Shown here: piece after piece, positions 38,410 through 63,812 of the stretch
How the letters are laid out: each line of letters opens with the position of its first letter
How positions within the stretch are numbered: position 1 is the first letter of the stretch
Assembly (NCBI GenBank): GCA_965208105.1
Contig: OZ242318.1
Span: 1,984,001-2,048,000, forward strand
From: Candidatus Latescibacterota bacterium
GTDB taxonomy: Bacteria > Latescibacterota > UBA2968 > UBA8231
Direction: 5' to 3'
DNA length: 64,000 nt
Position numbers and translations under genes: made by a program
The notes under the pieces: generated by a model
Database searches by the model: none
What the model saw: the letters and a program-made list of their open reading frames with translations, nothing else
What the model was told of the DNA's origin: nothing

Positions 38410-38465
38410 CGCTATAGGAGCTGGGTACCCGGAGGTCGGCGCAGCGCAAAACCGTGATGTTGTGG
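38410..38465 (-). repeat. attC site, partially deleted
   Basis: GGCGCAGCGCAAAACCGTGATGTTG right half retained. Confidence 0.55.
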
Positions 38466-38500
38466 GAAGTGCGCTTTTCCACCGGCGCATCAAAACATTT

Positions 38501-39388
38501 CTATTTGCGCGGAAGGATCCAGGTCTCGTACGCCAGATGCCAATCCTCCAGATGATTGAGAAGGACTCCACTCTTGATCGATCGATCACAACCTGTAAGC
38601 CTGTGGATTTCTGCCTGTCGTGTCTCGGGATGCTCACGATTCAGTAAGTTGCGTTGAAACCAATCGAGTCGCGTGCGGTCTATTTCGCCTATTTGAGTGG
38701 TCACCCAGCTTTCAAACGCCATGTAGGTCGGTTGGTTCTCCGTGACGAAGGAGATCATCGCATCACGGTCGAGGCCAAGAACGTCCAATACGTGCTGATC
38801 CAATCCCCTGCCACATGCCGGGTAATCAGTGCGGAGCAATCCCCTGGACTTCAGGAGAACTTTGTGCCAGGTACGGGCAAGTTGCAGGACATCGAGGGGA
38901 CCTACGTCGATACTGCTGACCAAAGGAGGAATTCCAGCAGGAATCTGACCTTTGACAAAGTCATTGGCGTGAAATAGATGCCAGTCCTGAAGCGTATTCA
39001 GCAACAAAACAGATGTATAAGTATCTGCTTCGGGATCGAATCCAATATCTTCATAGGTCTCCGTAATTTTGTGTGGCCGAATGTGGCGCCGATATTTGAC
39101 GATTTCATTGAATCTCGCGATCTGAGCTGTGGGCAATTGACCGATTTTTCTAGTGATGATCCACCGTTCGAACGAAACATAGTCGGGTAGTTCTGATCGG
39201 AGATAGTCGTATATCTCGTCGACATCCAAATTCATCGCCTGGAGACAAAAGGTGTCCAGGCCACCACTATTGTCCGGGTAACCGGGATCAAGAAGATCAA
39301 CAGCCCGTGTCACCGCCTTCCACCACGTTCGAGGCAGCTGGCAAACGCCAATGCTGCCCCTGCAGATACTACTGATCAGGGGGACCAT
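38501..39388 (-). CDS. Protein with two tandem DUF5069-like domains
   Basis: VPLISS..G.IGVCQLPRTWWK..YP and PPLVSS..GPLDVLQLARTWHK..DYP; both end LLNxLxDWH. Confidence 0.65.
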   Translation of the reverse strand: MVPLISSICRGSIGVCQLPRTWWKAVTRAVDLLDPGYPDNSGGLDTFCLQAMNLDVDEIYDYLRSELPDYVSFERWIITRKIGQLPTAQIARFNEIVKYRRHIRPHKITETYEDIGFDPEADTYTSVLLLNTLQDWHLFHANDFVKGQIPAGIPPLVSSIDVGPLDVLQLARTWHKVLLKSRGLLRTDYPACGRGLDQHVLDVLGLDRDAMISFVTENQPTYMAFESWVTTQIGEIDRTRLDWFQRNLLNREHPETRQAEIHRLTGCDRSIKSGVLLNHLEDWHLAYETWILPRK

Positions 39389-39444
39389 AGTAGATTCGTC
39401 CGGTCTGAAGCCTTTTGATAATCAACGGGCCTATCACGCATTTC

Positions 39445-39526
39445 CCATAACTTTCTCGCCGTGCCCCTTCCGCGAAGCGGTTGCGCGAAGGGCGATGTCC
39501 CGAAGCCTGGCACGAAGGTGTTACGC
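39445..39526 (-). repeat. attC site
   Basis: TAAC..CGTGCC..CCGCGAAGCGG..GGCACG..GTTA. Confidence 0.82.
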
Positions 39527-39611
39527 GATGGCGTGCCTGATACGTGCTTGCCGGGACGGCAAGTACGCTCGCTCACCTGAGTCACTGTAACTTTCCGCTC
39601 ACTGCACAAGA

Positions 39612-40427
39612 TTACGTCTTGTCGCCGTTCAGAGAGACTGAATGCTCCTTGACGATCATCCTATCTGCAAGAAGGGTGACAAAGTTGAAGCAAGGCGGAT
39701 GCTCTTCGTCAAAGTTCACTTCCTGTTCATGGGGCCAATAGTTGAGTTGGCAAAAGGTGCTGCCTACACTGATATAGGCAATGCCATCCTTGTGGATATG
39801 GGTCCCCCGATGAACATGACCGAAGAAAACGCCTCGGAGACGCTCTCTTGCCGGCAACAGTGCTTCATGTAAATCAGTGCCATTAAGCATGCCCACGTCT
39901 CTTGAATACCACTTGGAATCCAAATCGAGGGGCGAGTGATGAATAAAAACAGTCAATGAGCCGTTCTGCCGGCTAACCTCCGCTCGAACAAAATCAAGCT
40001 GGTCTTCTGTTACTTTACCAAAGTGGCCGACCTCTTCATATGGCTGCTGGGCATCCAGCACCAGAAACCGTTCGCCCTGATACGAGAATCGATAGCAGTT
40101 CAGGTCCGAATTGGATAGAACATCCTCTTTAGGACCCATTGTCAGATGCTTGCGCATATAATCACGCGTGTCATGATTGCCTGTTACAAAGTAGGTCGGG
40201 ATGTTGATTTGAGAAAATGCTTCCGCCGCCAGTTCGTAAGCGACCTCAGTATTATGATTCGCTACGTCCCCTGTATGAATCACAAATTGGGGGCGTGTCG
40301 GCAGGCTATTTATGGCTTCAAGGACCCGCAATAGATTACGGAATGGATTGTTGCCTAGCGCGATCCAATCTCTCAAATGTCCTAAGTGTGTGTCACTGAT
40401 ATGGACGAAATGCAGGGAATCTGCCAT
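39612..40427 (-). CDS. Metallophosphoesterase, CpdA/Icc-like
   Basis: SDTH, TGD, GNHD, HH, GHVH; ATG 40427 after GGAGGAGG. Confidence 0.88.
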   Translation of the reverse strand: MADSLHFVHISDTHLGHLRDWIALGNNPFRNLLRVLEAINSLPTRPQFVIHTGDVANHNTEVAYELAAEAFSQINIPTYFVTGNHDTRDYMRKHLTMGPKEDVLSNSDLNCYRFSYQGERFLVLDAQQPYEEVGHFGKVTEDQLDFVRAEVSRQNGSLTVFIHHSPLDLDSKWYSRDVGMLNGTDLHEALLPARERLRGVFFGHVHRGTHIHKDGIAYISVGSTFCQLNYWPHEQEVNFDEEHPPCFNFVTLLADRMIVKEHSVSLNGDKT

Positions 40428-40522
40428 GTTTTCCTCCTCCACCAGGAGATGGGTCCAATGACTTATACAAGGGGTCCGAGGCCCATGGATGGGCCGCGCC
40501 AGCTGTTCAAGGGCACACTTGC

Positions 40523-40616
40523 GGGTAACGTTCTCGCCACTTGCGAATCCGCGTAGCGGGTTGCCCTCAGGCCGAAGGGAGCGAATGCAACCGAAGCGCA
40601 AGTGGACGTGATATAG
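40523..40616 (-). repeat. attC site
   Basis: TAAC..CCACTTGCG..CGCAAGTGG ACGTGATA; stem sequence covaries relative to other sites. Confidence 0.8.
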
Positions 40617-40666
40617 GAAGTGCCAGCCGGAGTGGTAGGGTGACGCCCTGCCACAGACGACTGGAT

Positions 40667-41083
40667 CTAATGATCCTGGCCTGCGTAGATCCACATCGGT
40701 TCCGTTTTGCCTGCCCTGGCGAACCCGCACTTCTTGTAGAAGTCGATTGCCCTGCCATCTGCAACAAGCATATGTTGATGAAAGCCCTCATAATTTGACA
40801 TCAGCCTCTTCATCAATTCCGATCCTACTCCTTGCCCCTGATATTCGGGATGAACCAGCAAGTGTGGATAGTACACAACGAGATGGCCGTCAGAGATGGC
40901 GTTGCCCAATCCTATCAGACGGTCTCCGTCCCAAGCAGTCAGCAAGGAATGTGAGTTCAGTAACGCATTACGAAGTTCGGTCGGCTTTCTTGCTGAAGAC
41001 CAATCATTAGCCGAATAGAGTCCCAGTATGGCATCAAGTGGAATATCCCGTGTTTCTCTGTATCTAATCGAGGAGCCACTCAT
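40667..41083 (-). CDS. GNAT acetyltransferase
   Basis: LLVHPEYQGQGVG, FYKKCGF. Confidence 0.88.
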   Translation of the reverse strand: MSGSSIRYRETRDIPLDAILGLYSANDWSSARKPTELRNALLNSHSLLTAWDGDRLIGLGNAISDGHLVVYYPHLLVHPEYQGQGVGSELMKRLMSNYEGFHQHMLVADGRAIDFYKKCGFARAGKTEPMWIYAGQDH

Positions 41084-41183
41084 ACTTACCACCTGTTCTG
41101 CGATTACTTTCTAGGGAAAGCCGTTCTGCTCGCCCAAAAGGCGTTTCCACCACCTGCCCATGGGGGCTTTAGGTTGGTATTAC

Positions 41184-41265
41184 CTATATCGCTTTCACCG
41201 TGCCCGAACCGCGTAGTGGTTGCGCGAAGGGCGTTAGCTCGAAGCCGGGCACGGACGTGTTAGAC
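41184..41265 (-). repeat. attC site (core TATC)
   Basis: CCGTGCCCG..CGGGCACGG ACGTGTTA. Confidence 0.82.
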
Positions 41266-41286
41266 GTTCGTGCCGCTTCATTCGCA

Positions 41287-41835
41287 TTATTGGCTGGCGA
41301 TGTAGTCACGTAGCTTCTCGATCGCCGGCGGGTCTACATCTCGAAGTGGTGCGCCAGCTCGGTGCTTGTGAAAATTGACTTTCTCGTCCAGTTGCGCTTC
41401 AGCGCTTAGGATCGGGCAAGTAAGAGCGCCCAATTGGCCATCTGGAGCAGAGAAAGCTCCTTGTGGATATGGCCAATCGGTCCATCGGCCAGAGGTCACA
41501 ACTTCGCCCGATCCGGTCCTTTCGAGAAGCCCAAAACTGACAAACTGATCAAGTTTGTAGAATCCAATGTGTTCTTCCGGATGACGTAGCACTTGGGGAA
41601 CATATCCAAGTGCTGTAAGACAGGTGGTTACTGTGGAGACATCTGCCTTCCAAATCGCCCAATCTATGTCGCTGTGGACGCGCAAGACTTCGCCTAACAA
41701 GAAGTCCACAGCCCAACCCCCACCCAACCAGTGCTGAGCAGAGCAAGCAGTCAATGCCTCGTGGATCTCTCTAATCAAGCCAAGCTGGGTGGGGTTCGGC
41801 TCTTCCATACACCCACGGATTCCAGTCTCAGACAT
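41287..41835 (-). CDS. Nucleotidyltransferase, ANT(2'')/Lnu-like
   Basis: WLGGGWAVDFLLGEVLRVHSDID motif. Confidence 0.8.
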   Translation of the reverse strand: MSETGIRGCMEEPNPTQLGLIREIHEALTACSAQHWLGGGWAVDFLLGEVLRVHSDIDWAIWKADVSTVTTCLTALGYVPQVLRHPEEHIGFYKLDQFVSFGLLERTGSGEVVTSGRWTDWPYPQGAFSAPDGQLGALTCPILSAEAQLDEKVNFHKHRAGAPLRDVDPPAIEKLRDYIASQ

Positions 41836-41884
41836 AGGTTCAACTCAGGAAAGAACAATTACCAACACTCTGAAGCGGCATGAC

Positions 41885-41970
41885 GGCTAACTGCCTGTAT
41901 TCGAACCCACGAAGTGGGTTGCCGAGGGCCAAGGCGCGTAGCGCCGCAGCGCAACACCGTGCTGTCAGCC
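41885..41970 (-). repeat. attC site
   Basis: TAAC..AACCCACGAAGTGGGTT..GGCGCGTAGCGCC..GTCA. Confidence 0.78.
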
Positions 41971-41979
41971 GTTGGCGGG

Positions 41980-42750
41980 TCAATCCTGTGCCTTTCGATA
42001 GTAGTCGATCGGACCTCTGAACTCGAACGTTGCCTCTTTTAACGGAAAGTATGCGGGAACTTCACTATCTAACCATGCAGAAACCGATTCGAGGGACTCT
42101 TTTCCTTCCTCCACCGCGGCAATCACGTTCGTTTGGCTCAGGAGGTACTCGATGAGATGTGAGGATGTAAACGTGACATCGTTCTCGTACTTCTCGGAGC
42201 CCAACAAGAGAAATCCCTCCTCTTGGGCTTCTTCTTCCGTGAACTGAGTCATGTTCCGTGGCGGAGATGGATACCTCTTGAGATGAGTACCGTGAATCCA
42301 GTCGTGGAATTTCGGATTTTCCTTCATGTTGCCGGTGAACGTGTTGTTGTAGATGACCATGGGCGACGATTGCCGTAAAACCCGTCGTGCTTCTGCCAAG
42401 AAGGGTGGTCGATCGAACCAATGGAATGCGCAGGCCGCGGTAATGAGATCGACACAGTCTCCGTCGATCGGAATGTCGTCGGCGGACGCCACGTGATAGA
42501 TTATCTTTTCATCCAGTTCTGCGAGAGCTATCATCTCTGGGGATCGATCAATTGCGACGATTTTGGTGGCGACTTCTCGCAGTGCGATGCTCGACTGACC
42601 AGTGCCGCAAGCTACATCCAAGGCTGTGCCGACCGGTCTATCGATGCCCAGGAATGCCTTGATGCGGCTGATTACGACTGGATGGAAATAGGGCCGGGCA
42701 TCCCTGTATCTTTTGGCTGCGCTTTTATGATCGAAGTAACCGGGACTCAA
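41980..42750 (-). CDS. Class I SAM methyltransferase
   Basis: YRDARPYFH, ALDVACGTG, AFHWFD. Confidence 0.87.
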   Translation of the reverse strand: MSPGYFDHKSAAKRYRDARPYFHPVVISRIKAFLGIDRPVGTALDVACGTGQSSIALREVATKIVAIDRSPEMIALAELDEKIIYHVASADDIPIDGDCVDLITAACAFHWFDRPPFLAEARRVLRQSSPMVIYNNTFTGNMKENPKFHDWIHGTHLKRYPSPPRNMTQFTEEEAQEEGFLLLGSEKYENDVTFTSSHLIEYLLSQTNVIAAVEEGKESLESVSAWLDSEVPAYFPLKEATFEFRGPIDYYRKAQD

Positions 42751-42778
42751 CTGAAACCTCCAATACGAACCCGCTTAC

Positions 42779-42864
42779 GGCTAACGGCTGGCCATTCACG
42801 AAGCCGCGTAGCGGCTTTCAGCGAAGGGGCGTATGCCCCGAAGCCGTGAATGGGCTTGTTAGGT
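42779..42864 (-). repeat. attC site
   Basis: TAAC..CCATTCACG AAGCCGCGTAGCGGCTT..GGGGCGTATGCCCC..CGTGAATGG..GTTA. Confidence 0.85.
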
Positions 42865-43560
42865 GTCGTCGCAACGTTCTATCATGGCCCTACAGTGGCC
42901 CTCAAGATGGCGAAGATCGTCCTGATCCAGACTGCAATCGCTGCTGCAGACATACGAATCAAGATCCATTTGAATCAGTTGATGAAAACGGGCATCCAAT
43001 ACTCTCAAGCCCCATTCGCCGGCCTCTATCTTAGTGCAGAGATGACATTCCACCAGGGTAAATGCAACTCGGCAAAACATCAACGCAGGATTCTTGAATT
43101 TGGTTCGTATCTGCGGAACTACGTGCCGAATGCACTGCCGCAGTAAAGGCCACGGAACGCGTTTCAGAATCCTGTTGTGAGGTGTACCGAGAAGATCCCT
43201 CCCTGATTCAAAAATATCTTGCCTGAATAAAAGAAAATCTTTGCTACCATCAGGCTTGAGGATAATTGTATTGTTCATCTTGAGAAGGAAATCAACAGGA
43301 GTGGGGAAAACGTCGGCATTGATATGGTCTATCGTTGCTGCTGTTATGTCGTAAGACAGAGACTGTGATTTTACGAGTTCCAGGAGATGTACCCTTTTCT
43401 CCGACGGAGTGAGACGCTTCGTGGCAAGAAGAAGGTCAACATCACTCGTCTCAGGGTTGCCAAATTCCCGAGCGCGTGAGCCACCCATCCAAACCGATTC
43501 CAGTTCTCCTTCGTAAATCTCACCGAGTCCCTCCACAAAGCCATCTATTGCACTTCTCAT
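42859..43560 (-). CDS. Aminoglycoside adenylyltransferase-like (AadA/DUF4111-type) nucleotidyltransferase
   Basis: GGSRA..SDVDLL; C-term LMFCRV..TKIEAGEWGL; stop lies inside the attC core. Confidence 0.7.
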   Translation of the reverse strand: MRSAIDGFVEGLGEIYEGELESVWMGGSRAREFGNPETSDVDLLLATKRLTPSEKRVHLLELVKSQSLSYDITAATIDHINADVFPTPVDFLLKMNNTIILKPDGSKDFLLFRQDIFESGRDLLGTPHNRILKRVPWPLLRQCIRHVVPQIRTKFKNPALMFCRVAFTLVECHLCTKIEAGEWGLRVLDARFHQLIQMDLDSYVCSSDCSLDQDDLRHLEGHCRAMIERCDDT

Positions 43561-43674
43561 AGCAAGAAATTCCGGGGAGAAATAAATCGGGCTCCTGTCC
43601 GACCTCTATCTAACATCGAGGAAGCATATCCTGGAGTGATGTCAATAAGGCCAGCTTCACTCATATGCGATGAC

Positions 43675-43753
43675 ACCAAACGTTCAGTGGCTCACGAACC
43701 CGCGATATCGGGTTTGTGCGGAGCGAAGCGGAGCCGTGAGCCACATGTTATGC
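43675..43753 (-). repeat. attC site (core AAAC)
   Basis: GTGGCTCACG..CGTGAGCCAC ATGTTA. Confidence 0.82.
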
Positions 43754-43798
43754 GCATGTGAGGTTATCTGGACCCGCCAAACACGAGGGGGACGAAGC

Positions 43799-44578
43799 TT
43801 AGCATCCGTCTTTTTGAAGCACAATCTGCCGGAAGCCCCATTCTATCTGAGTGGTTCCCCCGCCCTCAGAGACAATTGCTTCCAACTCACGTTCCAGCGC
43901 TCCAATTTCTTGCTCCCCATAGTTCGCTTGAATGAAAGGCTCATTCTTCCACGACTGGATGTTCAAGGTAAACATAGTCGCTGCCTGGAAGTTGGACACG
44001 CCTATACGTGCGACGTTACTTGTGGCCTTGTCCAAGCCGTCGGGAATGTCCATCTTTTCCAGCGTAGGTCCGACACAAAGTTGGGTAGATTGGTCGGCCA
44101 AAAGAGCCTCCACAATACCGACATACTTGGAGAAAACGTGGTGACTGGTTTCAATCCATTCAACTTCTTCCAACAGCAAGAGCCCATTGTGTACCATCTG
44201 GCTGGCCCAATTTCGGATTACTTTTCTCGGCTCTCTAAAATGCGTCAGCAAGAGCCGGCAGAATAGGAAATTGGCAGCCCCGACGGGAAATGGAACCACA
44301 GTTATATCGTGCAGTTGAAACGATACCCTATCGGTCTCTCCCTCTTTGGCGAGGGAGATGAAGCGGTCTGAATTGTCAAGGCCAACGATCTTATCCGCGT
44401 GCGTCGCTTCTGCGAGCATATGTGTCGAGTATCCGGGACCGCATCCCAAATCTAAGGCTAGCTGAGGACGGTTTCTGAGAGATCTCAGGATGAATTCTCG
44501 GGACGAGGCTGCGTATACTTCGGCCAGATACTTAAGGCGCCTAGCAGCCAGATCCGTGTCCGTGAATTGGTATTTCAC
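43799..44578 (-). CDS. Class I SAM methyltransferase (Tam-like)
   Basis: ALDLGCGPG, CRLLLTH. Confidence 0.85.
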   Translation of the reverse strand: MKYQFTDTDLAARRLKYLAEVYAASSREFILRSLRNRPQLALDLGCGPGYSTHMLAEATHADKIVGLDNSDRFISLAKEGETDRVSFQLHDITVVPFPVGAANFLFCRLLLTHFREPRKVIRNWASQMVHNGLLLLEEVEWIETSHHVFSKYVGIVEALLADQSTQLCVGPTLEKMDIPDGLDKATSNVARIGVSNFQAATMFTLNIQSWKNEPFIQANYGEQEIGALERELEAIVSEGGGTTQIEWGFRQIVLQKDGC

Positions 44579-44669
44579 TGTGCTTATGGTCTTTCTGAAC
44601 TCAATGTCCCAACTGTAATCCCTTCGTTCCCTCTCTCCTACCGCCCTATTTTCCCGATACCACCATTGC

Positions 44670-44752
44670 GCATAACGTTCTCGCCGTGCCCGAACCGCGA
44701 ATGCGGTTGCGTGAAGGGCGCATTCCCGAAGCCGGGCACGGACGTGTTATGC
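44670..44752 (-). repeat. attC site (consensus type)
   Basis: TAACGTTCTCG CCGTGCCCG AACCGCGAATGCGGTT..CGGGCACGG ACGT GTTA. Confidence 0.9.
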
Positions 44753-44781
44753 GGAGCTGGTGACGTCCAGCCTCGAGCTAC

Positions 44782-45690
44782 CTATGCAGGTGTGTAGTTG
44801 AAATAGCTATAGGTCAAGTCAACGACCTGAAATCCCGTATTGCTGTAAAGCAACTGAGCTCGATAGTTATCAAACCGGGTGTTTAGAATTGCGTTTTCGT
44901 ATCCGCACTTGTGTAGTTCATGCAGTGATCTTCTTAGGAGAAAAGCACCCACTCCTTTTGACCGGTCGGCTTTGGATACGTTTAGACTTGCAATGTAGGC
45001 ACACTTCTGAGCTGCTGGTGCATGAATCTGCATACCCGCCGAGAAGCATTGTATTTCGGCCACCGTCTTGCTATCTCGGCAAAGCTGGATATTCAGACTG
45101 GGCAGGTTGCTTTCTCCATTCGACGTCCTTACAAGTTCTTCCAATCTTGAAACGATTCCAGGGGGCTTCGGAACAGAGTCAGTCTCTACCAGACTGCGAT
45201 TCATGAAATACCACCCAGAGTACTTTTTATATCCGTTTGCACCGAATAGTCCGTGAACATGAGCCAATCGGTCAGACAAACTGGGCACGTCAAAGCGATA
45301 AAAAGAGTAGATCTTCGGAAAAAATGCCTGTATCCGGTCAAAACCCAATTCTCCGAAGTAATTTTCGGCGGCTTCGAGGATCAGCTGACCCAGTTTGCGA
45401 TGGCCGGGCTTGTAAGAAAGAAAACGAATCAATCCCGCGTCCGGGCTACCCTTTCTCTTTTCTTTTAGTCCTGCAAGGTGCGCGAAACCGACGATTCTGC
45501 TGTCTGTAAGCCCAACGATAAGCTTCTCAGAGTAGAGATCGTAGTCCGAAGCTTCTTTTTCCCAACTCCACACGTCACGTCTGAGTTCCTCACCCGTTAC
45601 CGGATAACAAAACGGTATACTAGCAACTTGCTGGTTGTAGGATTCAGCAAGCTGCGCAATGTCGTTGATGTGCCATAGCGATATTTCCAT
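44782..45690 (-). CDS. Tandem GNAT acetyltransferase
   Basis: DRSKGVGAFL, DNYRAQLLYSNTGF. Confidence 0.8.
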   Translation of the reverse strand: MEISLWHINDIAQLAESYNQQVASIPFCYPVTGEELRRDVWSWEKEASDYDLYSEKLIVGLTDSRIVGFAHLAGLKEKRKGSPDAGLIRFLSYKPGHRKLGQLILEAAENYFGELGFDRIQAFFPKIYSFYRFDVPSLSDRLAHVHGLFGANGYKKYSGWYFMNRSLVETDSVPKPPGIVSRLEELVRTSNGESNLPSLNIQLCRDSKTVAEIQCFSAGMQIHAPAAQKCAYIASLNVSKADRSKGVGAFLLRRSLHELHKCGYENAILNTRFDNYRAQLLYSNTGFQVVDLTYSYFNYTPA

Positions 45691-45797
45691 TAGGCCTTCA
45701 AATCCTAGCTTCCATCAAAAACCCAATGCCGAGTTTCGAGACCCGCCGAAAGTAGAAGCGATCTCTTGCCCAAACCGATCCTCAGGACGACAGTTTC

Positions 45798-45880
45798 GCA
45801 TAACGATTTCGCCGTGCCCGAACCGCGAAGCGGTTGCGCGAGGCGGCCTGGCGCCGAAGCCGGGCACGGACGTGTTATGG
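45798..45880 (-). repeat. attC site
   Basis: Consensus type with GCGAAGC hairpin. Confidence 0.9.
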
Positions 45881-46279
45881 GCCTGTGCCTCGCTTGATTG
45901 CCCGCGCACATCGCCGCTCTACAGAAAAGCGAATTCCGTCGTATTCGCTCTTTGGCCGATAGCCTCCAAGGGAATCTGCCTCCTCGAGGCAACGCAAAGC
46001 CTTCTTCGGTTCGCCCGTTTTGGAAAGTGGACTCGCAAGCCAAGTCCATGCCCGTGCTGCCTTTGCAGTTGGCAAACCAAGCTCAAGTGCTTTCCTGTAA
46101 GCCGGTATCGCATCGACCTCCTATCCCCGATTGTCCCTCGTTACAGCGAGCCAATACCAGGCATCCGACGAATCCGGTTCGGCAGCGACTGCGGATTCGA
46201 ATTGATCAATCGCAGCTTTCCACCGACGAGCATCTCGAAGCCTAAGTCCCTCTTTCAGAGGGAGTGCCGCCGACCCCAT
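45875..46279 (-). pseudogene. TPR protein interrupted by one in-frame TAG (46121-46123)
   Basis: MGSAALPLKEGLRLRD..AIDQFESAVAAEPDSSDAWYWLAVTRDNRG*EVDAIPAYRKALELG..AWTWLAS. Confidence 0.72.
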
Positions 46280-46337
46280 TGAAGGCCCCTTTCTTTACCA
46301 AGTCCCCGATAGCTCGCCAACTCAATAGAAGCATGGC

Positions 46338-46407
46338 CTATAACGCTTTCCGGTTGCCGAAGGCCAAGGCGCCCGAGGGCGCCGCAGCGGCAACCGCGCT
46401 GTTATCG
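46338..46407 (-). repeat. attC site, short single-hairpin form
   Basis: TAAC..CGGTTGCCG..GGCGCCCGAGGGCGCC..CGGCAACCG..GTTA. Confidence 0.87.
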
Positions 46408-46436
46408 GCTGTCGCGTCTGGGCTCCTTTTGGATAT

Positions 46437-47438: not shown

Positions 47439-47466
47439 AATACGGAACTCCGCATTACGCGATTGC

Positions 47467-47548
47467 CGATAACGTTTTCGTGCCCCCGAAACGCAAAGCG
47501 GTTGGGCGAAGGGCCGAACGGCCCGAAGCCGGAGACCCGGTGTTACCT
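47467..47548 (-). repeat. attC site
   Basis: TAACGTTTTCG..GGGCCGAACGGCCC..GTGTTA. Confidence 0.82.
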
Positions 47549-47584
47549 GGAGTTGTGGCCTGGGGGCGAGCGGTTGAAGGAGCC

Positions 47585-55051: not shown

Positions 55052-55087
55052 TTGATCGGCTTAGTACACAGCGTCATCTGGTATGGC

Positions 55088-55169
55088 CTATAACGTTTCC
55101 GTGCCCCCGAACCGCGCAGCGGTTGGGCGAAGGGTCGAACGGCCCGGAGCCGGGGGCACGGTGTTATAG
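55088..55169 (-). repeat. attC site
   Basis: CCGTGCCCCCG..CGGGGGCACGG TGTTA. Confidence 0.9.
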
Positions 55170-55215
55170 GATGTGCCAGCCGAGCTTGGAGTACACACGG
55201 CTCTGAGTTCCACCA

Positions 55216-56181: not shown

Positions 56182-56184
56182 TTC

Positions 56185-56275
56185 CTATAACGTTACGCCG
56201 ATTGCCGAACCTGCGAAGCAGGTTGCCAGATGCCAAGGCGCGACGAGCGCCGCAGGGGAAAACGAGTTGTTATGC
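56185..56275 (-). repeat. attC site
   Basis: TAAC..AACCTGCGAAGCAGGTT..GGCGCGACGAGCGCC..GTTA. Confidence 0.85.
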
Positions 56276-56287
56276 GATCGGCACTCG

Positions 56288-57373
56288 TCAAGAAGATCGA
56301 AATGGTCCTCCATATCTGACCAAAACGTGCCACAAGTATTTCAGGAGTCCGCGCACTTTCCGAGGATCACCCCAGTTGCTCCACTCAGAAGGATTTCTCC
56401 CCAGGTCCATTGCCGCAGATCCAATCACTCTTGGATCCACGCGGCCATCAATGGCCACGTGTGTGGCAAATGGCGGCATCACGGGACCCCTGAAATCGCT
56501 TGGCACCTCATCAGCTGGCAACGTGAAACCCATGTGCCAGAAACAATCGATGGAATACTCGGAACACACTTCCTCGAGAACTTCGCCGATATGTGTATTC
56601 TTGAAAGAAGGATCAACAACCATTATGTCGGCATCGGTGCGCAGACAAACGTCACCGTGAACCTGTGCCTCGATGTAGTGATTCAAATTGCGGTTGGCCT
56701 CTCGTCCAGATGGATCCTTGAAAGGTTGCTCAAGTTCAGTGAATAGATGCTCGACAAGCCTCCCAGTAGTCAGGTTCCGTTCACCTATCGCAAAATCGCT
56801 GAAGAACGCGTCTTTCATCATGGCGGCAAGTATGCCGTCGAAAGCCTTGTACGTACCATTGGAGCCCGAGTGCGATGAATCCAAGTACGTAAACGTCGTC
56901 CGAGTTGAGACCTCCGGTTTTAAGAGCAGAAAGCAGCATCCAAACCGAGGTGAAGGTCCGTCAGGATGCAACATTAGATCGAGCGCCCCGTACTTGGGCC
57001 GTTCCTCGTCGGAGGTTTCGTTATTGTGATACGCACCACCGAAGAGCCTATCTTCCCACCTGTCGCGCTCACCACCGGAATAAGCAGTTTCGCCACCGCT
57101 CGACATTTTGGTCACGAACTGGTTTCGATAGATTCCCTGTTCTAGCAACGCCTGGGCTACTGGTTTCAGGTCTGGATCTGGTCTGTCCGGATGGAAGTGC
57201 AACCCGACTCGGGCGTGAGACTTGAGCTTGGCGACAGTCTGGTCGAATCGTTCCGGGGCAATATCCGATTGGTAAAGGATGTCGGACAGCCATTTCAGCG
57301 CCCAGTCTCTTTGCTCTCGCCCACAGTGGGTGAAATGATCTAGAGCGGCTAATTGCGATTTTGTCAGATTCAT
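56288..57373 (-). CDS. DUF3626-like protein
   Basis: LHFHPDR, YRNQF, RPKYGALD, GPSPRFG, YIEAQVHG. Confidence 0.78.
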   Translation of the reverse strand: MNLTKSQLAALDHFTHCGREQRDWALKWLSDILYQSDIAPERFDQTVAKLKSHARVGLHFHPDRPDPDLKPVAQALLEQGIYRNQFVTKMSSGGETAYSGGERDRWEDRLFGGAYHNNETSDEERPKYGALDLMLHPDGPSPRFGCCFLLLKPEVSTRTTFTYLDSSHSGSNGTYKAFDGILAAMMKDAFFSDFAIGERNLTTGRLVEHLFTELEQPFKDPSGREANRNLNHYIEAQVHGDVCLRTDADIMVVDPSFKNTHIGEVLEEVCSEYSIDCFWHMGFTLPADEVPSDFRGPVMPPFATHVAIDGRVDPRVIGSAAMDLGRNPSEWSNWGDPRKVRGLLKYLWHVLVRYGGPFRSS

Positions 57374-57413
57374 AGAACAATCGGTGCGGGCACTATTCAG
57401 ACTTGAACTTACC

Positions 57414-58573
57414 TAGTGCTCTGTTAAGGATTCAGGCTTGTACTTTTTCGTACATGTTGGTATCATGGGGACATATGTCCATTTTTCTGGGAGGGTCCTG
57501 CCATGTGCCTCCATGCTCGAACACCGGATGCTGCCGAATCGAAAGAACTGGGCCGATGGCTGAAGCGGCCACGCAATGCCGTACAGATGCGACGAGGGCA
57601 ATTGATCTCCCTCAGTGCCCAGGGTATGCGGGTCCAGGAGCTGTCGGCGACGCTGCATCTGCACGAGGAATACATCCGCTCCCTGGTCCGACGATACAAC
57701 GAGGAAGGGCTGGCGTCGCTTCGCACGCGAGCCCACCCGGGGCGCACCCCAGCGCTGACGCCCGAAGACGAGTCCGTGGTGGTGGAGATCGCCAAGATGC
57801 CCCCTCGGGCTTTCGGCCAACCCTTCAACCAGTGGTCGCTGCGCAAGCTGACCGACTGTCTGGTCGGGCGCAAGATGATCCCCAAGGTCTCGCACGTGAC
57901 CATCGCCAAGGTCTTGGACCGGCATAAGGTCACCTACCAACGTACCCGCACCTGGAAGGAGTCGAAGGATCCGGATTTCTCCTCGAAAAAAAACGCATCG
58001 ACCGCCTCTACCGGCGTGCGCCGAAGGACTCGGTCGTAGTCTGCTTCGACGAAATGGGGCCCGTGCAGATCAAGCCCCATGCCGGCTCCTCCTGGGCGCC
58101 GCAGAAGCACCCGGTGCGGCACCGAGCCACCTACACCCGGCACGCCGGGGTCAGCTATTTCTTCGGCGCCTACAACGTCCACGAGGACGTCCTGTGGATG
58201 CATCACAAGCGAAAGAAGCACGCCTCGGAGGTGCTCACTTTCCTCAAGGCCATCCGGCACCGCTACCGCAAGGCCCAACGCATCTACCTCGTTCTGGACA
58301 ATTTGTCGACGCACGCGACCCCAAAGATTCGGCAATGGTGTCGGCAGCATCGAGTCTCCCTCGTCTTCACCGCTACCAACGCCTCCTGGATGAACCGTCT
58401 CGAATGCCATCTGACCGCCGCCCACTACTTCGTCATCAAGAACAGCGACCCAAGGGACCATCGAGACATCGGCCAGCGCATGCAGGAATACCTCGTATGG
58501 AGAAATCGAAACCAGGACGATGCCAAGCTCGCCAAAATACAAAATTCAATGCCCACTCTTTAACAGCGCACTA
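57414..58573 (+). mobile_element. IS630-family insertion sequence
   Basis: IRs TAGTGCTCTGTTAAGGA / revcomp TAGTGCGCTGTTAAAGA; TA duplication within CTAG; two overlapping ORFs. Confidence 0.92.
57503..58563 (+). CDS. IS630 transposase (ORFA HTH + ORFB DDE, joined by a probable -1 frameshift at A8, 57986-57993)
   Basis: WSLRKL HTH; frameshifted KKRIDRLY..VCFDEMGP..LDNLSTH..SWMNRLE. Confidence 0.88.
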
Positions 58574-58583
58574 GTGCCCGTTC

Positions 58584-58665
58584 GCATAACGTTTCCGCCG
58601 TGCCCGAACCGCGCAAGCGGTTGCGCGAAGGGCGTAGCCCGAAGCCGGGCACGGACGTGTTATCT
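58584..58665 (-). repeat. attC site
   Basis: Consensus type. Confidence 0.9.
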
Positions 58666-58711
58666 GACGTGCGATTCACTGCGTAGTCCACCAGGAACTT
58701 CGAGCGTGCGT

Positions 58712-59542
58712 CTATTTGGTGACCACCCAGTAGGTGTCGGTCTCGTTTTGAGATCCTATGTACGGTCCACAGTCGTGGCTCCCGTAGAGCTCCCAACGCT
58801 CAAATCCAGCTAGGCGCAGCGGCAACTGGAACTCTGCCGGATAGATCCATCGTGCCTGCATCGGTACTTTCGACGTTTCCCCACTGTGCCTGAAGGTCCA
58901 CGTATAGCTTTCTCTTTGAGATGCAAGATCGCAGCTCTTGGCGTAGCTAACCTCGATCTCTTTACCTGTCTCGGGATGAATGAATACACCGAATTCCTCC
59001 TCAGGAGGAGTGGAATCCAGGTGGAGGAGCAAGTCGCCGGTGTAAGAAGGAACGTAGAAATTCAACAACAAGCGTCCTCCAGGATGCAGACAATTGTAGA
59101 CTCTGCTCAGGCACGCGATTTGGATCGCCCGCGTCGATAGCATCATGATGGAACTGGCAGGGATCAGCACTGTTCTAAACCGGTTATCGTAGGTGAAGTC
59201 CCCGAGGTCCTGATGGGAAATTCGCGTGGCGATGTCCGCGATGCCCAGATCGATTCCTTTACCTATGAGCACGTCCAACATGGGCAAAGAAGAATCAAAC
59301 CCGAAAACATCAAATCCGTCCGCGAGCAGAGGCAGCATGATCGAGCCCGTTCCGCAAGCCGCCTCCAAAGTAGCACCTTGCGTGTCATGCAGCTGACCTC
59401 GGTAAAACGCCAATTCGTGTTGACGCTGTGCCGATCTTCCACCGCTCTCACTCCACTGGTCGTAGATCAGCGACCACCACAGGCTGTTATAGCCAATTTC
59501 GTTCTCCTGCAAGGCGGTTCCGATATTCGGTCGATCTAGCAT
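58712..59542 (-). CDS. Class I SAM methyltransferase
   Basis: LEAACGTG, FDSSLPML, LHPGGRLL. Confidence 0.85.
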   Translation of the reverse strand: MLDRPNIGTALQENEIGYNSLWWSLIYDQWSESGGRSAQRQHELAFYRGQLHDTQGATLEAACGTGSIMLPLLADGFDVFGFDSSLPMLDVLIGKGIDLGIADIATRISHQDLGDFTYDNRFRTVLIPASSIMMLSTRAIQIACLSRVYNCLHPGGRLLLNFYVPSYTGDLLLHLDSTPPEEEFGVFIHPETGKEIEVSYAKSCDLASQRESYTWTFRHSGETSKVPMQARWIYPAEFQLPLRLAGFERWELYGSHDCGPYIGSQNETDTYWVVTK

Positions 59543-59550
59543 CGCATGTC

Positions 59551-59636
59551 AGATAACGTTCTCGCCGTTGCCCGAACCGCGAATGCGGTTGCGCGAAGGC
59601 GCCTCAGCGCCGAAGCCGGGCACGGACGTGTTACCT
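59551..59636 (-). repeat. attC site
   Basis: Consensus type. Confidence 0.9.
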
Positions 59637-59681
59637 GCCGTGGCCATCCTGCGCGGATGAAAATTCCTCGTAGCACCCGAT

Positions 59682-60479
59682 TCACACCTCTGGCTTAAAG
59701 CCTACGGCGCGACACCACGCAAAGGCCGCATAGGCATCGGGAGATACCGACCACTCCTCCCAGGCTTCGGTTATTGCTTTCAACTCGTCATCTGTTGCAA
59801 GTGCGTGTTCTTGCGCGTTCTGAACAAAGGCTCCGTCCTGGAAGTAGTGCACTTGTCTGGTCCCAAACGTCTTCACTTTGTCCTCAGTTCCATAGCAGAG
59901 ATACTTGGAAGTGACAGTCACATCTTTAAAACTCGCGCCATTCAATAGACCGCGAAGTTCGCGGCCGCAATATGGACCGCCTGTGCCTTTGAGAGTCCAG
60001 AGCTGCTCTCGAATTGAATAGCTGCGTCGAAGTAAGGACGAACGTGGTCCGCCGACGATGAAACCACCGTATTCCACGTCCGCGATTCCTAATACCCCAC
60101 CGGGTTTGAGGACGCGCTTCACCTCCAGGAGTGCGTCTTGTGGGCGATCCAGGGTCTCGACCACCGAGTGGCAGAGGCAGGCATCGAAGCTATTGTCTGC
60201 GAAATCGAGTCCGTAGACATCACCGACGCAAAAGTCAACGTTTCCAATCGCGTGGACGCGAGCATACGTTTCAGCATCTCCGAAACCATCATCACTATGA
60301 TCAACACCGACTACGCTACGCACCTTCTCGGCCACACCCAAAGCAATGCTTCCGCCACCGCATCCTACGTCCAGGACTTTGAACTCTGGTGCCAAGTGTG
60401 GAAACAGGAACTCGGCATAATCGTCCGCGTTCCGGCCGGCCATGTAGTCTTCAAAGCTCATGCCAGAGGTGTCTTCCAA
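59682..60479 (-). CDS. UbiE-like SAM methyltransferase
   Basis: VLDVGCGGG, FADNSFD, RVLKPGG. Confidence 0.87.
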   Translation of the reverse strand: MEDTSGMSFEDYMAGRNADDYAEFLFPHLAPEFKVLDVGCGGGSIALGVAEKVRSVVGVDHSDDGFGDAETYARVHAIGNVDFCVGDVYGLDFADNSFDACLCHSVVETLDRPQDALLEVKRVLKPGGVLGIADVEYGGFIVGGPRSSLLRRSYSIREQLWTLKGTGGPYCGRELRGLLNGASFKDVTVTSKYLCYGTEDKVKTFGTRQVHYFQDGAFVQNAQEHALATDDELKAITEAWEEWSVSPDAYAAFAWCRAVGFKPEV

Positions 60480-60495
60480 TGCGGAAAGCCATGGC

Positions 60496-60587
60496 AGGTA
60501 ACGCTTTCCGGTTGCCGAACTCGCGAAGCGAGTTGCCGGAGGCCCAGACGCCCAGAGGGCGGCGCAGCGGCAAACGTGTTGTTACAT
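60496..60587 (-). repeat. attC site
   Basis: TAAC..TTGCCG AACTCGCGAAGCGAGTT..CGGCAA..GTTA. Confidence 0.88.
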
Positions 60588-60661
60588 GAAGTGCAATCGT
60601 GGAGTGTGGCCAGGACGGCCACCTCCATTCCCCTGAGTTGCGAGGCCTGTGGCTGCAACAC

Positions 60662-60922
60662 TCAGGCCGCAGCAGTCTGCCTCACTTCCCATCCTGGAAA
60701 CACCAGAACTGCCGGATGGCACTGCAGTGCTTGAGCCAAAACTTTCGCACGTTCTACTCCCAGCTGCACCCGATCGTTCTCAATGGCAGAAATAGTGGAT
60801 TGAGGAATCCCAGTTCGGCGTGACAGCTCGTTCTGGCTCAATTCCTGCAGCTCTCTGACTATCCGTACTGACTCACCCACGGACACTTCAATCCGCTTCC
60901 TGGCTGGACGGTAGTTCTTCAT
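60662..60922 (-). CDS. XRE-HTH antitoxin (HigA-like)
   Basis: RELQELSQNELSRRTGIPQSTISAIE. Confidence 0.85.
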   Translation of the reverse strand: MKNYRPARKRIEVSVGESVRIVRELQELSQNELSRRTGIPQSTISAIENDRVQLGVERAKVLAQALQCHPAVLVFPGWEVRQTAAA

Positions 60923-60923
60923 T

Positions 60924-61205
60924 TCACTTTCTCCGATAATCGTGGACTGTAATATCCACTACCTTCACAAGGATCTCGCTTGCAACAACCTCATAAATGA
61001 CTCGAAAATGAAGACCAAGCCTCGATGATCTGTGGCCCTTCCATTCGCCCCGCAGGGCTTCGTCGTGAAACCCCTTGATGAGCCTCAGGCCAGCGGGGCC
61101 GGACACCGCAACGATGTCCTTCCACTTCTCGTAGCGTTTGAGAACCTCGTCAGGCATGGTTCGGAGTCTTTTCTCGACTCTCCGATGCTCAAGGAGGGTC
61201 CACAT
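60924..61205 (-). CDS. RelE/HigB/YafQ-family toxin
   Basis: GFHDEALRGEWKGHRSSRL..FRVIY..HDY; toxin-first order. Confidence 0.85.
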   Translation of the reverse strand: MWTLLEHRRVEKRLRTMPDEVLKRYEKWKDIVAVSGPAGLRLIKGFHDEALRGEWKGHRSSRLGLHFRVIYEVVASEILVKVVDITVHDYRRK

Positions 61206-61212
61206 ACCAGGT

Positions 61213-61240
61213 AAGATATATACTCATTTAGATATGTCAA
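61213..61240 (-). promoter_or_regulatory. Putative promoter of the TA cassette
   Basis: TTGACA-16 bp-TATCTT, 7 nt before the ATG. Confidence 0.55.
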
Positions 61241-61286
61241 CATGGGATCGGTTCATGGGCGGCCATGGATGGCCGACCTACATTTC

Positions 61287-61383
61287 ATGTAACGTTCCGC
61301 CGGTTTGCGAAGCCCGAGCTTGTCGAGGGGTTGCCGAAGGCCGGGCGCCAAAGGCGGCGCAGCGCAACACCGCGCTGTTATAC
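61287..61383 (-). repeat. attC site (near-identical to 52655-52751)
   Basis: One internal substitution relative to 52655. Confidence 0.88.
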
Positions 61384-61968
61384 GACGGCGTGATCATCCC
61401 CGCCCTCGACGCTCCAGCATGTCTCGACCACACCGAAGTCAGGCCGAGACAGGACGATCCAAGATGGCAGCCCCAACTGTTTCCACAAAGCAAACGGTTC
61501 CAGCGCTGAAATGCGGCTCACGAAAAGGCTCAGCACCGTCCCGTGAGTTATGAGAGCCAAATTCGCCTGTGGAAATCGGTCTGATAGTTCATACACGGCC
61601 TTCGAAAATCTGTTGTACGCTGTATCCGCCGTCTCCTCGCCGAAAATAAATTCAGTTGGTCGAGAGAAAAAACGACCGATCGACTCCTCAAAGCGCTCCT
61701 TTTCCAGGAAGCCAACGTTGCATCGTTCATGTTCTTGCAACCCATCAACGACTTCTACCGGCGTTTTCAGAAAGCGCGCTGAGATTTCAGCTGTTTCTAC
61801 GGCTTTAGGTTCGGTGCTACTGACAATCACATCGAGATCATATTGGACCAATTTCTCAGCGAGTATCTGAGAACGGACGCGGCCTTCCCGCGACAGATGC
61901 CATTCATTGGCTGGGACCGTAGAATCGATCTCCGGTAGCGAATGCTTCACCAAAACGATCATCTGCAT
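61378..61968 (-). CDS. Histidine phosphatase-like protein (KHS instead of RHG)
   Basis: LVKHS, SSTEPKAVETA, ITHGT; stop lies inside the attC core. Confidence 0.8.
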   Translation of the reverse strand: MQMIVLVKHSLPEIDSTVPANEWHLSREGRVRSQILAEKLVQYDLDVIVSSTEPKAVETAEISARFLKTPVEVVDGLQEHERCNVGFLEKERFEESIGRFFSRPTEFIFGEETADTAYNRFSKAVYELSDRFPQANLALITHGTVLSLFVSRISALEPFALWKQLGLPSWIVLSRPDFGVVETCWSVEGGDDHAVV

Positions 61969-62002
61969 CTTCTCGGTTCTTCTTCTCGTCTAATCTGCTG
62001 TC

Positions 62003-62084
62003 GTATAACGTTTTCGTGCCTCCGAGCCGCGCTGCGGTTGGGCGAAAGACCGAATGGCCTGAAGCCGGGGGCACGGTGTTATAG
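62003..62084 (-). repeat. attC site; part of the duplicated cassette
   Basis: Matches 54134-54215. Confidence 0.88.
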
Positions 62085-62119
62085 GCCGTGACAGCCTGCA
62101 AGCAATCAATTAGGAGCGG

Positions 62120-62920
62120 CTATACCACCTGTATTTTCGATGCAAATCTCTGAAATCGATCAAGTGTTATATTCGCCCAACCGACAACAGTCTCAGAGGG
62201 TTGCTCAGTTTGCAATTCATTTAGCGCAGAGACTTCGAAATATGAACCATAGATAGCGCCACAGATATAATAATCGCGCACGGGATCTGTAGACTCAACC
62301 GAAAGCCTACCCATGTAGGATTCGATCAGCGATTCTATGTTCAAAAGTTTTGGATACGGCGTAACTTGCGCTCCGGTCCGGAGGACCAGATCGGCAAACG
62401 GAGAACTCAACCAGGATAGGCCCAAGTCGAACGCGACGATCTTCTTGCCTAACATGCCTAGATTGGAATTGGCCGGATCACCATGCGAGACGCAGGTGCA
62501 CCGGCTTGCAACCATTTTCTGAAACTCGCGGAATATGTACGAGGCAGAGGGTAAGGCACCGAAGTCACTGCGATAAAGCCGCGAATTAGGGTCCCCCGCT
62601 TCGGCAACGAGCTGCGACATGACCGTCCAGTATGATGAAAAGTAGCCAAGATTGCACGGCGGATACTCTACCACGCTAACAGAATTGAACTCCACGACCC
62701 AATGGAGAACGCGTTCGAAACCAGCTATTTCGGACGTGTCAAACGGCAAGGGCGCGGCCTTTTCCAGGACTATCTTCCGCCTACAGCCGTCTTCAATCAC
62801 GTCAAGCAACTGCACAACAGGCGCACCCGCATCGTTGAGGGCTTTATACTTCTCGACCTCTGAAAACCCGGGTCTCTCTGGCTTGATCACGTAGGTGCCG
62901 CAGTCTTCAACTTGAGACAT
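62120..62920 (-). CDS. APH-like phosphotransferase (copy 2)
   Basis: Differs from 54251..55051 at 2 residues (position 5 Q/E, last residue L/V). Confidence 0.72.
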   Translation of the reverse strand: MSQVEDCGTYVIKPERPGFSEVEKYKALNDAGAPVVQLLDVIEDGCRRKIVLEKAAPLPFDTSEIAGFERVLHWVVEFNSVSVVEYPPCNLGYFSSYWTVMSQLVAEAGDPNSRLYRSDFGALPSASYIFREFQKMVASRCTCVSHGDPANSNLGMLGKKIVAFDLGLSWLSSPFADLVLRTGAQVTPYPKLLNIESLIESYMGRLSVESTDPVRDYYICGAIYGSYFEVSALNELQTEQPSETVVGWANITLDRFQRFASKIQVV

Positions 62921-62956
62921 TTGATCGGCTTAGTACACAGCGTCATCTGGCATGGC

Positions 62957-63039
62957 CTATAACGTTTCAGTGCCCCCGAACCGCGAAGCGGTTGGGCGAA
63001 GGGCCGAATGGCCCGTAGCCGGGCACGGACGTGTTATAG
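62957..63039 (-). repeat. attC site
   Basis: TAAC..GTGCCC..AACCGCGAAGCGGTT..GGGCCGAATGGCCC..GGGCAC..GTTA. Confidence 0.9.
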
Positions 63040-63073
63040 GAAGTGCCAAACCTCTTGCCTTGGCACAGCAATC

Positions 63074-63739
63074 TCAATTCCTCGCACATCCTCGCCAGAC
63101 GGCTTTGAAAGGCTCGCCTGTGATTCTATCGGGTACGAATAGGTGCTCGATCTGAAGATGCGTCCACTCTTGAAAGTGACCTTCAAGCTCGGATTGGGAG
63201 AAGAAGTGAACTGTTTGGCCACCCGCTTCAAGCACCCGGTTTGGCCCTAGCTTCTTGGATACGCGCCTTCGGCGTGCTCGAAGCTCAAGGTCATCAACTG
63301 AGTTCACGTGAAAGATGAAAATCCCTGAGGGGCGCAGAATGCGCCTTACCTCCTGAATGACGGTCATCGTCGTCATGTCGTCGAACATGTGAAGCGCCAC
63401 GTTGGAAAAAACGGCATCGAAGCACTGTTTGGGAAAGGGAAGCCCTCTGGCCATATCAGCCCTCACAAAATCGGCCCCGGGGATCCGCTTTGAACGGGCG
63501 ATGTCTAGGGCCTTTTCAGAAAAATCCAGGCCCACGGCTTGGAGGCCTAACGTTGCAAGACGACGTACGTCGTTCCCAGTCCCACATCCCAGATCCAGAA
63601 CCTTTCTGCATCTACACGCGGCCAGAGTGCCCAAAAAAGGATCTATCCAGAGCCCGCCCCAATTCAGATCACCTTCGCGTTCGAAGCGGTCATTCCAAAC
63701 CGCGGAATCCCCGTAGAAAGTATCATCGCTTGGGGTCAA
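63074..63739 (-). CDS. Class I SAM methyltransferase
   Basis: VLDLGCGTG, FDAVFSNVALH, ILRPSG. Confidence 0.87.
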   Translation of the reverse strand: MTPSDDTFYGDSAVWNDRFEREGDLNWGGLWIDPFLGTLAACRCRKVLDLGCGTGNDVRRLATLGLQAVGLDFSEKALDIARSKRIPGADFVRADMARGLPFPKQCFDAVFSNVALHMFDDMTTMTVIQEVRRILRPSGIFIFHVNSVDDLELRARRRRVSKKLGPNRVLEAGGQTVHFFSQSELEGHFQEWTHLQIEHLFVPDRITGEPFKAVWRGCARN

Positions 63740-63749
63740 TTGGCATTTC

Positions 63750-63812
63750 CTATAACGTTATGCCGGTTGCCGAAGGCGCGAATGCGCCGCAGCGGTAACC
63801 GTGCTGTTAGCC
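63750..63812 (-). repeat. attC site, minimal 63-bp form
   Basis: TAAC..CGGTTGCCG AA GGCGCGAATGCGCC GCAG CGGTAACCG..GTTA. Confidence 0.87.

Follow-up and report, generated by a model that had tools for sequence, protein, structure and literature searches.

Extended cassette-specific pairing of attC-like ends and a fixed G·T at position 11 in a cassette array of a Candidatus Latescibacterota bacterium

The cassette array and its neighbouring recombinase

The window analyzed here is a stretch of 64,000 nucleotides from contig OZ242318.1 of a Candidatus Latescibacterota bacterium, and the element under study is an integron-like cassette array of about 50 kb that lies partly within it, in which the two ends of a cassette are complementary beyond the seven-nucleotide core of the attC site. 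A total of 49 attC-like sites, all on the + strand, were found with a covariance model. The sites span 26549 to 76600 in window-extended coordinates, where the numbering is carried on into the stretch to the right of the window (L008), and the array runs 13 kb past the right end of the window, where an attI-like site and a recombinase gene of opposite direction terminate it. The sites form 48 adjacent pairs and, together with the attI junction, define 49 cassettes. An earlier reading of the sequence alone, referred to below as the sequence-only reading, covered the range 38459-63756, about half the length of the array; 27 of the 49 cassettes fall within that range. The covariance model was started from ten near-identical imperfect palindromes of 82-86 nt that had been seen by eye and aligned, and was rebuilt (model R2) from the 39 best matches. 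An initial scan that counted stems recovered no sites, and the sites reported here come from the covariance model instead.

The long open reading frames (ORFs) between the attC-like sites are on the minus strand, and every site reads xxxxAAC ... GTTxxxx on the + strand, with the AAC and GTT triplets both in register in 38 of the 49 sites. Because of the gene direction, and because one subfamily carries a bulged A on the 3' arm, the + strand was taken as the attC bottom strand. Each ORF is followed by an imperfect palindrome bounded by AAC and GTT, with the sites on a single strand, as in integron cassettes.

The attI-like core, ATCTAAC, is found at L008 13044-13050 (window-extended 77044-77050), about 200 nt from the start of the divergent tyrosine recombinase gene; as in a complete integron, such a gene stands beside the first cassette together with a core-bearing junction. 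Only two parts of the integron-integrase model, positions 2-179 and 235-315, are matched by the recombinase, and 42 nt of the gene separate the two matches. It is 39% identical to IntI1, with 44 gap positions at the extra segment of IntI1, the IntI-specific insertion of roughly 40 amino acids. An intact ortholog of 312 aa in the relative G001 scores 230.7 bits against the TIGR02249 cut-off of 265, with XerA as the next closest match, and the score falls under the integron-integrase cut-off because the insertion is missing. The recombinase is therefore unlike the integrase of a complete integron, which has the IntI-specific domain and scores above the TIGR02249 cut-off, and it is XerC/D-like in length.

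Among the 41 genomes searched (40 relatives and this one), a full-length canonical IntI was found in eight and the short type of recombinase in eleven. The short recombinase adjoins arrays of this attC family in six relatives (G001, G010, G040, G016, G014 and G008). The same family was absent from the five genomes with only a canonical IntI, and no match was found within 20 kb of canonical intI genes, both searches having been made with R2, which is tuned to this family so that divergent sites would escape it. With the same limit, R2 gave a single match, L073, on 80 further recombinase loci that are mainly XerD-like genes of other phyla, from a collection that excludes records close to this genome. 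A generic hairpin finder gave mostly false hits with RNA parameters and, with DNA parameters, no sites in the array studied here, which served as its positive control; its failure to return sites at the 80 loci, or beside canonical intI genes other than that of G019, is thus uninformative.

Complementarity of the two ends of each cassette

For each pair of adjacent sites, the 30 bases from the G of GTT onwards at the right of one site were compared with the 30 bases up to and including the C of AAC at the left of the next site, the latter as reverse complement. Position counts for the 48 adjacent (cognate) pairs were set against those of 2353 non-adjacent pairs, and two registers, at 75585-75687 and at the attI core 77044-77050, were placed by hand. 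Watson-Crick pairing was observed at positions 5-7 in 41-42 of the 48 cognate pairs against about 32% of the non-cognate pairs, in agreement with an integron crossover at G|TT, in which core positions 2-7 belong with the downstream cassette. Outside the core, Watson-Crick pairs were found at position 9 in 36 of 48 cognate pairs (37% of non-cognate pairs), at position 10 in 27 (30%), and at positions 12-16 in 37, 31, 32, 29 and 27 (27-47%). A weak excess continues through positions 17-19, with 20, 16 and 16 of 48 against about 25%, and the baseline is reached from position 20. Cognate ends thus stay paired outside the 7-nt core as far as about position 16-17. The cassette next to attI, the first of the array, has the same arms, and these pair to position 14.

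The arms were found to be specific to their cassette, as the sequence-only reading had described. When partners were permuted across the whole array, Watson-Crick pairs at positions 9, 10 and 12-17 numbered 132.4±9.4, against 244 out of 392 for the true partners, and none of 20000 permutations reached the observed value. The comparison with shuffled ends proposed by the sequence-only reading therefore came out in its favour. The outcome was the same within its range (27 cassettes; 140/216 against 76.2±7.4; 0/20000) and when two identical arm pairs were left out (231/376 against 125.1±9.3; 0/20000). All four types of Watson-Crick pair occur at positions 12-15 among 150 distinct cognate pairs, de-duplicated, from this and seven other genomes.

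The sequence-only reading had stated that each cassette is bracketed by an inverted repeat of 14-19 bp. The extended complementarity is present, whereas a repeat of at least 14 in every cassette is not: unbroken paired runs of at least 14, counting Watson-Crick pairs and wobbles on the + strand, were found in 14 of the 49 cassettes (7 of the 27 within its range), and runs of at least 12 in 19. Only 0.5% of non-cognate pairs have a run of 14 or more. Many of the runs stop at position 10, at a T opposite T, and the pairing restarts beyond it. Unbroken runs are short because position 10 is often T·T, because a few arms have a one-base bulge beside the G, and because the distal cassettes (window 26-39 kb) are either degenerate or separated by an attC that was overlooked. 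The four cassettes that it had quoted as examples were found in place (Table 1), and their arms can meet only in an excised circle or by looping out of the whole gene, again as it had stated. A fifth cassette, 55170-56184, is included in the table as an example of the T·T and G·T neighbours.

Table 1. Coordinates of the cassette array, the recombinase gene and representative sites and arms (window coordinates unless stated otherwise)
Feature	Position	Strand	Remarks
Cassette array	26549..64000	- (genes and attC top strand)	35 sites in window, 14 in L008
Tyrosine recombinase gene	L008 13249-14193 (window-extended 77249-78193)		outside window
attC-like site	58584..58665	+	bottom-strand reading GCATAAC ... 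GTTATCT; 91.7 bits with R2; fold predicted
R'' core and outer arm, cassette 58666-59550	58659..58675	+	positions 1-17; G at position 11 = 58669
R' core and outer arm, cassette 58666-59550	59541..59557	+	T at position 11 = 59547
R'' core and outer arm, cassette 59637-60495	59630..59644	+	positions 1-15
R' core and outer arm, cassette 59637-60495	60488..60502	+	
R'' core and outer arm, cassette 51886-52654	51879..51893	+	positions 1-15
R' core and outer arm, cassette 51886-52654	52647..52661	+	
R'' core and outer arm, cassette 47549-48311	47542..47560	+	positions 1-19; wobbles at 9 and 11
R' core and outer arm, cassette 47549-48311	48300..48318	+	
R'' core and outer arm, cassette 55170-56184	55163..55181	+	positions 1-19; T·T at 10, G·T at 11
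R' core and outer arm, cassette 55170-56184	56173..56191	+	

Fixed non-Watson-Crick positions, relatives and predicted folds

Two positions of the outer stem are fixed. Position 8 is an invariant G-C pair, and position 11 is occupied by G opposite T in 35 of the 49 cassettes (20 of the 27 within the earlier range, where more than 15 had been claimed) and in 34 of the 48 adjacent cognate pairs. The G is present on the R''-side arm in 39 of the 49 cassettes and the T on the R'-side arm in 43. As the genes are on the minus strand, it is the + strand that carries the wobble, and the coding strand has an A·C mismatch there, just as the sequence-only reading had it. The strand specificity is also clear in the 150 distinct cognate pairs, in which the bottom strand carries G·T at position 11 in 122. 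A Watson-Crick pair stands there in 12, and neither A·C nor C·A occurs. Position 11 is not a covarying pair, since the same two bases face each other in 70% of the non-cognate pairs as well, and hence also in the array. The G·T being equally frequent in non-cognate pairs, the two bases are conserved letters of an extended consensus and not an instance of covariation.

Immediately within the core, the bottom strand has another fixed G·T (AAC-G / T-GTT), in 37 of 38 sites of this array and in 100 of 110 sites from relatives. The G019 sites have it too, as do four class 1 attC sites that are intact. The inner wobble seems to be general to attC sites and the outer one not. The inner and outer wobbles are 11 positions apart and bracket an arm of 10 bp.

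Position 10 shows T opposite T in 35 of the 150 distinct cognate pairs, adjoining the G·T. The two together form a two-position patch without Watson-Crick pairing, which reads ...NTG... in the R'' arm and ...NAA... in the R' arm on the coding strand. An ATG is found at positions 11-13 in 22 of the 49 cassettes (for example at window 59545-59547) and is over-represented there, mostly as the start of a frame of 1-30 codons that is not in phase with the long ORF. The long ORF begins at this ATG in two of the 49 cassettes, one of them the cassette 55170-56184, and both arms lie mostly outside the long ORF.

The covariance model has matches in 23 of the 41 genomes, this one included, and these belong to four families of one class. 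A set of 20 stretches gave 172 sites, of which 171 were used after one partial match was dropped. These sites form 155 adjacent pairs. In 113 of them the two triplets are in register and the sites are separated by 200-3500 nt, and 96 of these come from seven other genomes. The position-11 G·T was found in 81 of the 96 cognate pairs. Watson-Crick pairs were counted at positions 12-16 in 78, 75, 68, 59 and 48 of them, against control fractions of 0.50, 0.32, 0.31, 0.27 and 0.26, and the baseline is reached from position 18. The arm pattern is therefore kept across seven other genomes from at least three families. Homologous cassette pairs were limited to 15; in one of these, an orthologous cassette present in two families, both arms have changed in such a way that positions 5 and 13 remain paired and position 10 is paired again.

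The same attC family also occurs elsewhere in this genome (G000), far from the recombinase gene, in two clusters (G000:C1:2741446-2750705 and 1041319-1046051) and as single sites. The cassettes of these distant clusters carry the same arms (17 pairs).

Folding of the 49 cassettes was predicted with DNA parameters and 15-nt flanks. The junction of the circle is predicted at -32.4 kcal/mol for the bottom strand and -29.7 kcal/mol for the top strand, and the in-array context at -26.1 and -24.8 kcal/mol respectively. In 86% of cassettes the predicted stability of the circle exceeds that of the array context, and in 43 of 49 the bottom strand is predicted to be more stable than the top, with a mean difference of 2.7 kcal/mol. 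From its base, the predicted bottom-strand hairpin consists of the outer stem, the core, the inner G·T, a bulge of 3-4 nt on the 5' arm, two base pairs, a bulged A on the 3' arm (in one subfamily), a 9-bp stem and a branched tip. The spacer in these folds is one-sided, with a bulge of 3-4 nt on the R'-L' arm against 0-1 nt on the other arm. As for extrahelical bases, the predicted folds have one bulged A on the R''-L'' arm in one subfamily and none in another.

Comparison with known integrons and interpretation

In classical attC sites, self-pairing of R' and R'' reaches 9-11 consecutive nucleotides for most cassettes, according to Bouvier et al. 2009 (PMC2727003). Consecutive complementarity of cognate ends past the 7-nt core is thus a known feature that is also present here, and in this lineage it is exceeded, to about position 16-17. 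Positions 1-10 of our sites agree with that classical figure, the partner of R'' and its outer flank likewise lies at the other end of the cassette, and the crossover point is likewise G|TT. Unlike the classical pairing, the pairing in this array restarts after position 11 for five to six positions, and it contains the invariant G-C at position 8 and the bottom-strand G·T at position 11. The sequence-only reading had been unaware of any description of the feature, and this holds in part: pairing beyond the core is already in print at the length just given, while a stem beyond 11 nt and a fixed outer G·T were not found in the portions of the literature that were searched, older attC alignments and supplements being places that may hold relevant cases.

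Five class 1 cassettes of an E. coli plasmid pair over 8, 8, 12, 12 and 8 positions, and they have no fixed G at position 8 and no G·T at position 11. An array in G019, a genome of the same family in which a canonical IntI lies beside sites of about 122 nt, pairs over roughly 7-12 positions and likewise has neither the fixed G at position 8 nor the G·T at position 11 (about nine pairs, judged by eye). The comparison with other arrays that the sequence-only reading had proposed thus covered the relatives, where the pattern recurs in 96 pairs, and the G019 array and five class 1 cassettes, where it was not seen. In the E. coli plasmid (L060 5500-5600, minus strand) we also observed that the OXA-10 cassette joins the aadA1 cassette through an attI1-like AAAACAAAG|TT junction, with no full attC.

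Canonical strand selection is attributed to extrahelical bases, an unpaired central spacer and a variable terminal structure (Bouvier 2009, PMC2727003; Nivina 2016, PMC5027507), and wobble pairs are not named as strand determinants in those portions of the attC literature that were searched. The sites studied here resemble canonical attC sites in being imperfect hairpins whose two strands differ only at features other than Watson-Crick pairs, with a predicted bulged R''-L'' base in one subfamily. They differ from canonical sites in the predicted one-sided spacer and in the neighbouring recombinase, which is without the IntI insertion. At the level of the whole array, promoterless ORFs in one orientation with attC sites correspond to a complete integron or to a cluster of attC sites lacking an integrase (CALIN), as these are defined by IntegronFinder (Cury 2016, PMC4889954). 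Unlike a CALIN, this array has a divergent tyrosine recombinase gene, whose protein scores 230.7 against 265 bits, and an attI-like junction. Such arrays are likely to be classed as CALINs or orphan attC clusters by standard tools for which the IntI domain is a requirement.

The explanation that we consider probable is that the inverted repeats are an extended R-box stem of the excised cassette, which would stabilize the folded bottom strand while the wobbles aid the choice of strand. The counts given above establish that the ends pair, that each cassette does so in its own way, that relatives share the pattern and that the two strands are asymmetric; the roles in capture and strand choice are inferred from energies and asymmetry. 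The two repeats would be the two halves of the base of the attC hairpin that belongs to each cassette. The crossover would take place between the G and the TT of the R' core, so the sequence 3' of it (on the coding strand) would move with the next cassette. The partner of the R''-side arm consequently lies at the other end of the cassette, about 0.5-2 kb away in the array, and only excision of the circle would bring the arms together. This would give the folded bottom strand in this lineage an R-box helix of about 16-17 positions instead of 7 to 11 bp. Its layout comprises a fixed GTTA at positions 1-4, cassette-specific bases at 5-7, the invariant G-C at 8, variable bases at 9-10, the fixed G·T at 11 and cassette-specific bases again from 12 to 16 or 17. 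The additional helix may stabilize the folded bottom strand of the circle and so favour capture at attI. Since the wobbles are A·C mismatches on the coding strand, they may help the recombinase, which is IntI-like but without the insertion, to take the bottom strand. Such a stem is known in principle; at this length, and with a wobble fixed on one strand, it seems to be a variant peculiar to this lineage and linked to a non-canonical recombinase.

Several observations weigh against this explanation. The paired run is 8 or shorter in 19 of the 49 cassettes, and the frequency of the position-11 G·T in non-cognate pairs may reflect two separate sequence requirements instead of a structural one. 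Among the 15 homologous cassette pairs there is a single compensatory example, and single-sided changes broke a pair in 12 instances and made one in 19. The difference in predicted energy between the strands is small and is partly due to bulges. The recombinase gene of this genome has a TAA stop at the place where the G001 ortholog has a Glu codon, and the array in this genome may be frozen; in addition, G021 and G008 carry both types of recombinase, so that the enzyme acting here may be other than the short type. The canonical comparison consists of one array, with about nine pairs judged by eye, and five class 1 cassettes.

The invariant G at position 8 on both arms, and the constancy of position 11 whatever the partner, would also be accounted for if the recombinase recognized the bases at positions 8 and 11-13 directly, within an 11-13-bp arm like that of Xer-type sites, and the G·T were a by-product. 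Xer sites have an 11-bp arm, the recombinase is XerC/D-like in length, and positions 12-13 are biased to T/G and to G respectively. The R' side would then need A and the R'' side G at position 11, each read on its own 5'-to-3' strand, and the distal pairing would merely keep the helix closed. Such differing base needs of the two arms at the same helical position are left unexplained, and we regard this account as rather unlikely. It is improbable that the arms are, as the sequence-only reading had also considered, a relic of the origin of the cassettes, the base of a longer hairpin that was split at the first excision and has no present function. The fading of the pairing with distance, its poor state in the distal and presumably old cassettes, and the frequency of single-sided changes that break a pair would all suit a relic, but the conservation of the pattern in seven genomes of at least three families argues against it. 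The orthologous cassette with compensatory changes weakens it further, as does the location of the arms mostly outside the long ORF, where protein constraint would not hold them.

A role in the messenger RNA (mRNA), where the arms would join the 5' and 3' ends of the transcript or control the ATG at positions 11-13, is suggested by the presence of that ATG in 22 of the 49 cassettes. However, the long ORF starts there in two only, and the fixed non-canonical pair forms a wobble just on the non-coding strand, whereas the transcript would have an A·C mismatch, which makes such a role very improbable. The repeats also bracket each gene exactly, from GTT to AAC, as would be expected of transposon-like units, each made up of one gene and a private set of terminal inverted repeats, with the palindromes as spacers in between. 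Against this, the repeats vary between units, and duplicated cassettes (53315/66060 and 54134/62003) retain their distinctive R''-side attC while the core on the far side varies with the neighbour. As this is the pattern of integron cassettes and rules out transposon-like terminal repeats, we consider such units extremely unlikely.

If the arms were inert relics, they would be merely a longer case of a textbook feature. A central problem of integron biology is how a recombinase distinguishes the two near-identical hairpins of palindromic sites, and the accepted answer is extrahelical bases, which the IntI-specific insertion reads. The sequence-only reading had proposed that the outer stem may substitute for the extrahelical bases. 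There is circumstantial support for this, as the recombinase is without the insertion and as neither the G019 array nor the five class 1 cassettes showed the long stem with G·T. A broader possibility, to which we give only tentative and limited credence, is that the array represents a separate integron-like branch whose recombinase never had, or has lost, the domain for extrahelical bases. In such a branch two bottom-strand wobbles one helical turn apart, at positions 0 and 11, would choose the strand, with the distal helix keeping the outer wobble closed in the circle; if true, this would be a second, independent solution to the recognition of a folded single strand. The extended R-box stem, found in large cassette arrays of at least eight genomes and next to an insertion-less recombinase, offers a mutable element with which an alternative to extrahelical bases can be tested.

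Some further features of the array were observed. Three pairs of duplicated cassettes are present (54216-55087 and 62085-62956; 53398-54133 and L008 2143-2878; 59637-60495 and L008 7786-8645). In other public samples, contigs of 90% likeness place cassettes of the window beside other neighbours, which is weak evidence for the integron cassette pattern as the attC repeats may cause mis-joins, and covered parts alone were used; likewise, long contigs of X5 and X10 show window cassettes in a different order, with mis-joins again possible where the attC repeats exceed the assembler word. In the distal part of the array (window 26549-38459) the cores are degenerate (AAT, ATC, AAG) and the cassette ends pair poorly, and the 4.8-kb interval between the sites at 27370-32201 contains an ORF of 661 aa. 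Finally, a stretch of 1158 bp at 57413-58577 resembles an insertion sequence. The 7-nt direct repeat CTAGTGC flanks it, its ends are inverted over a short length, and two ORFs lie in it on the minus strand. It sits just within the 5' arm of a 2.3-kb cassette, and contigs of runs X5 and X6 join across it.

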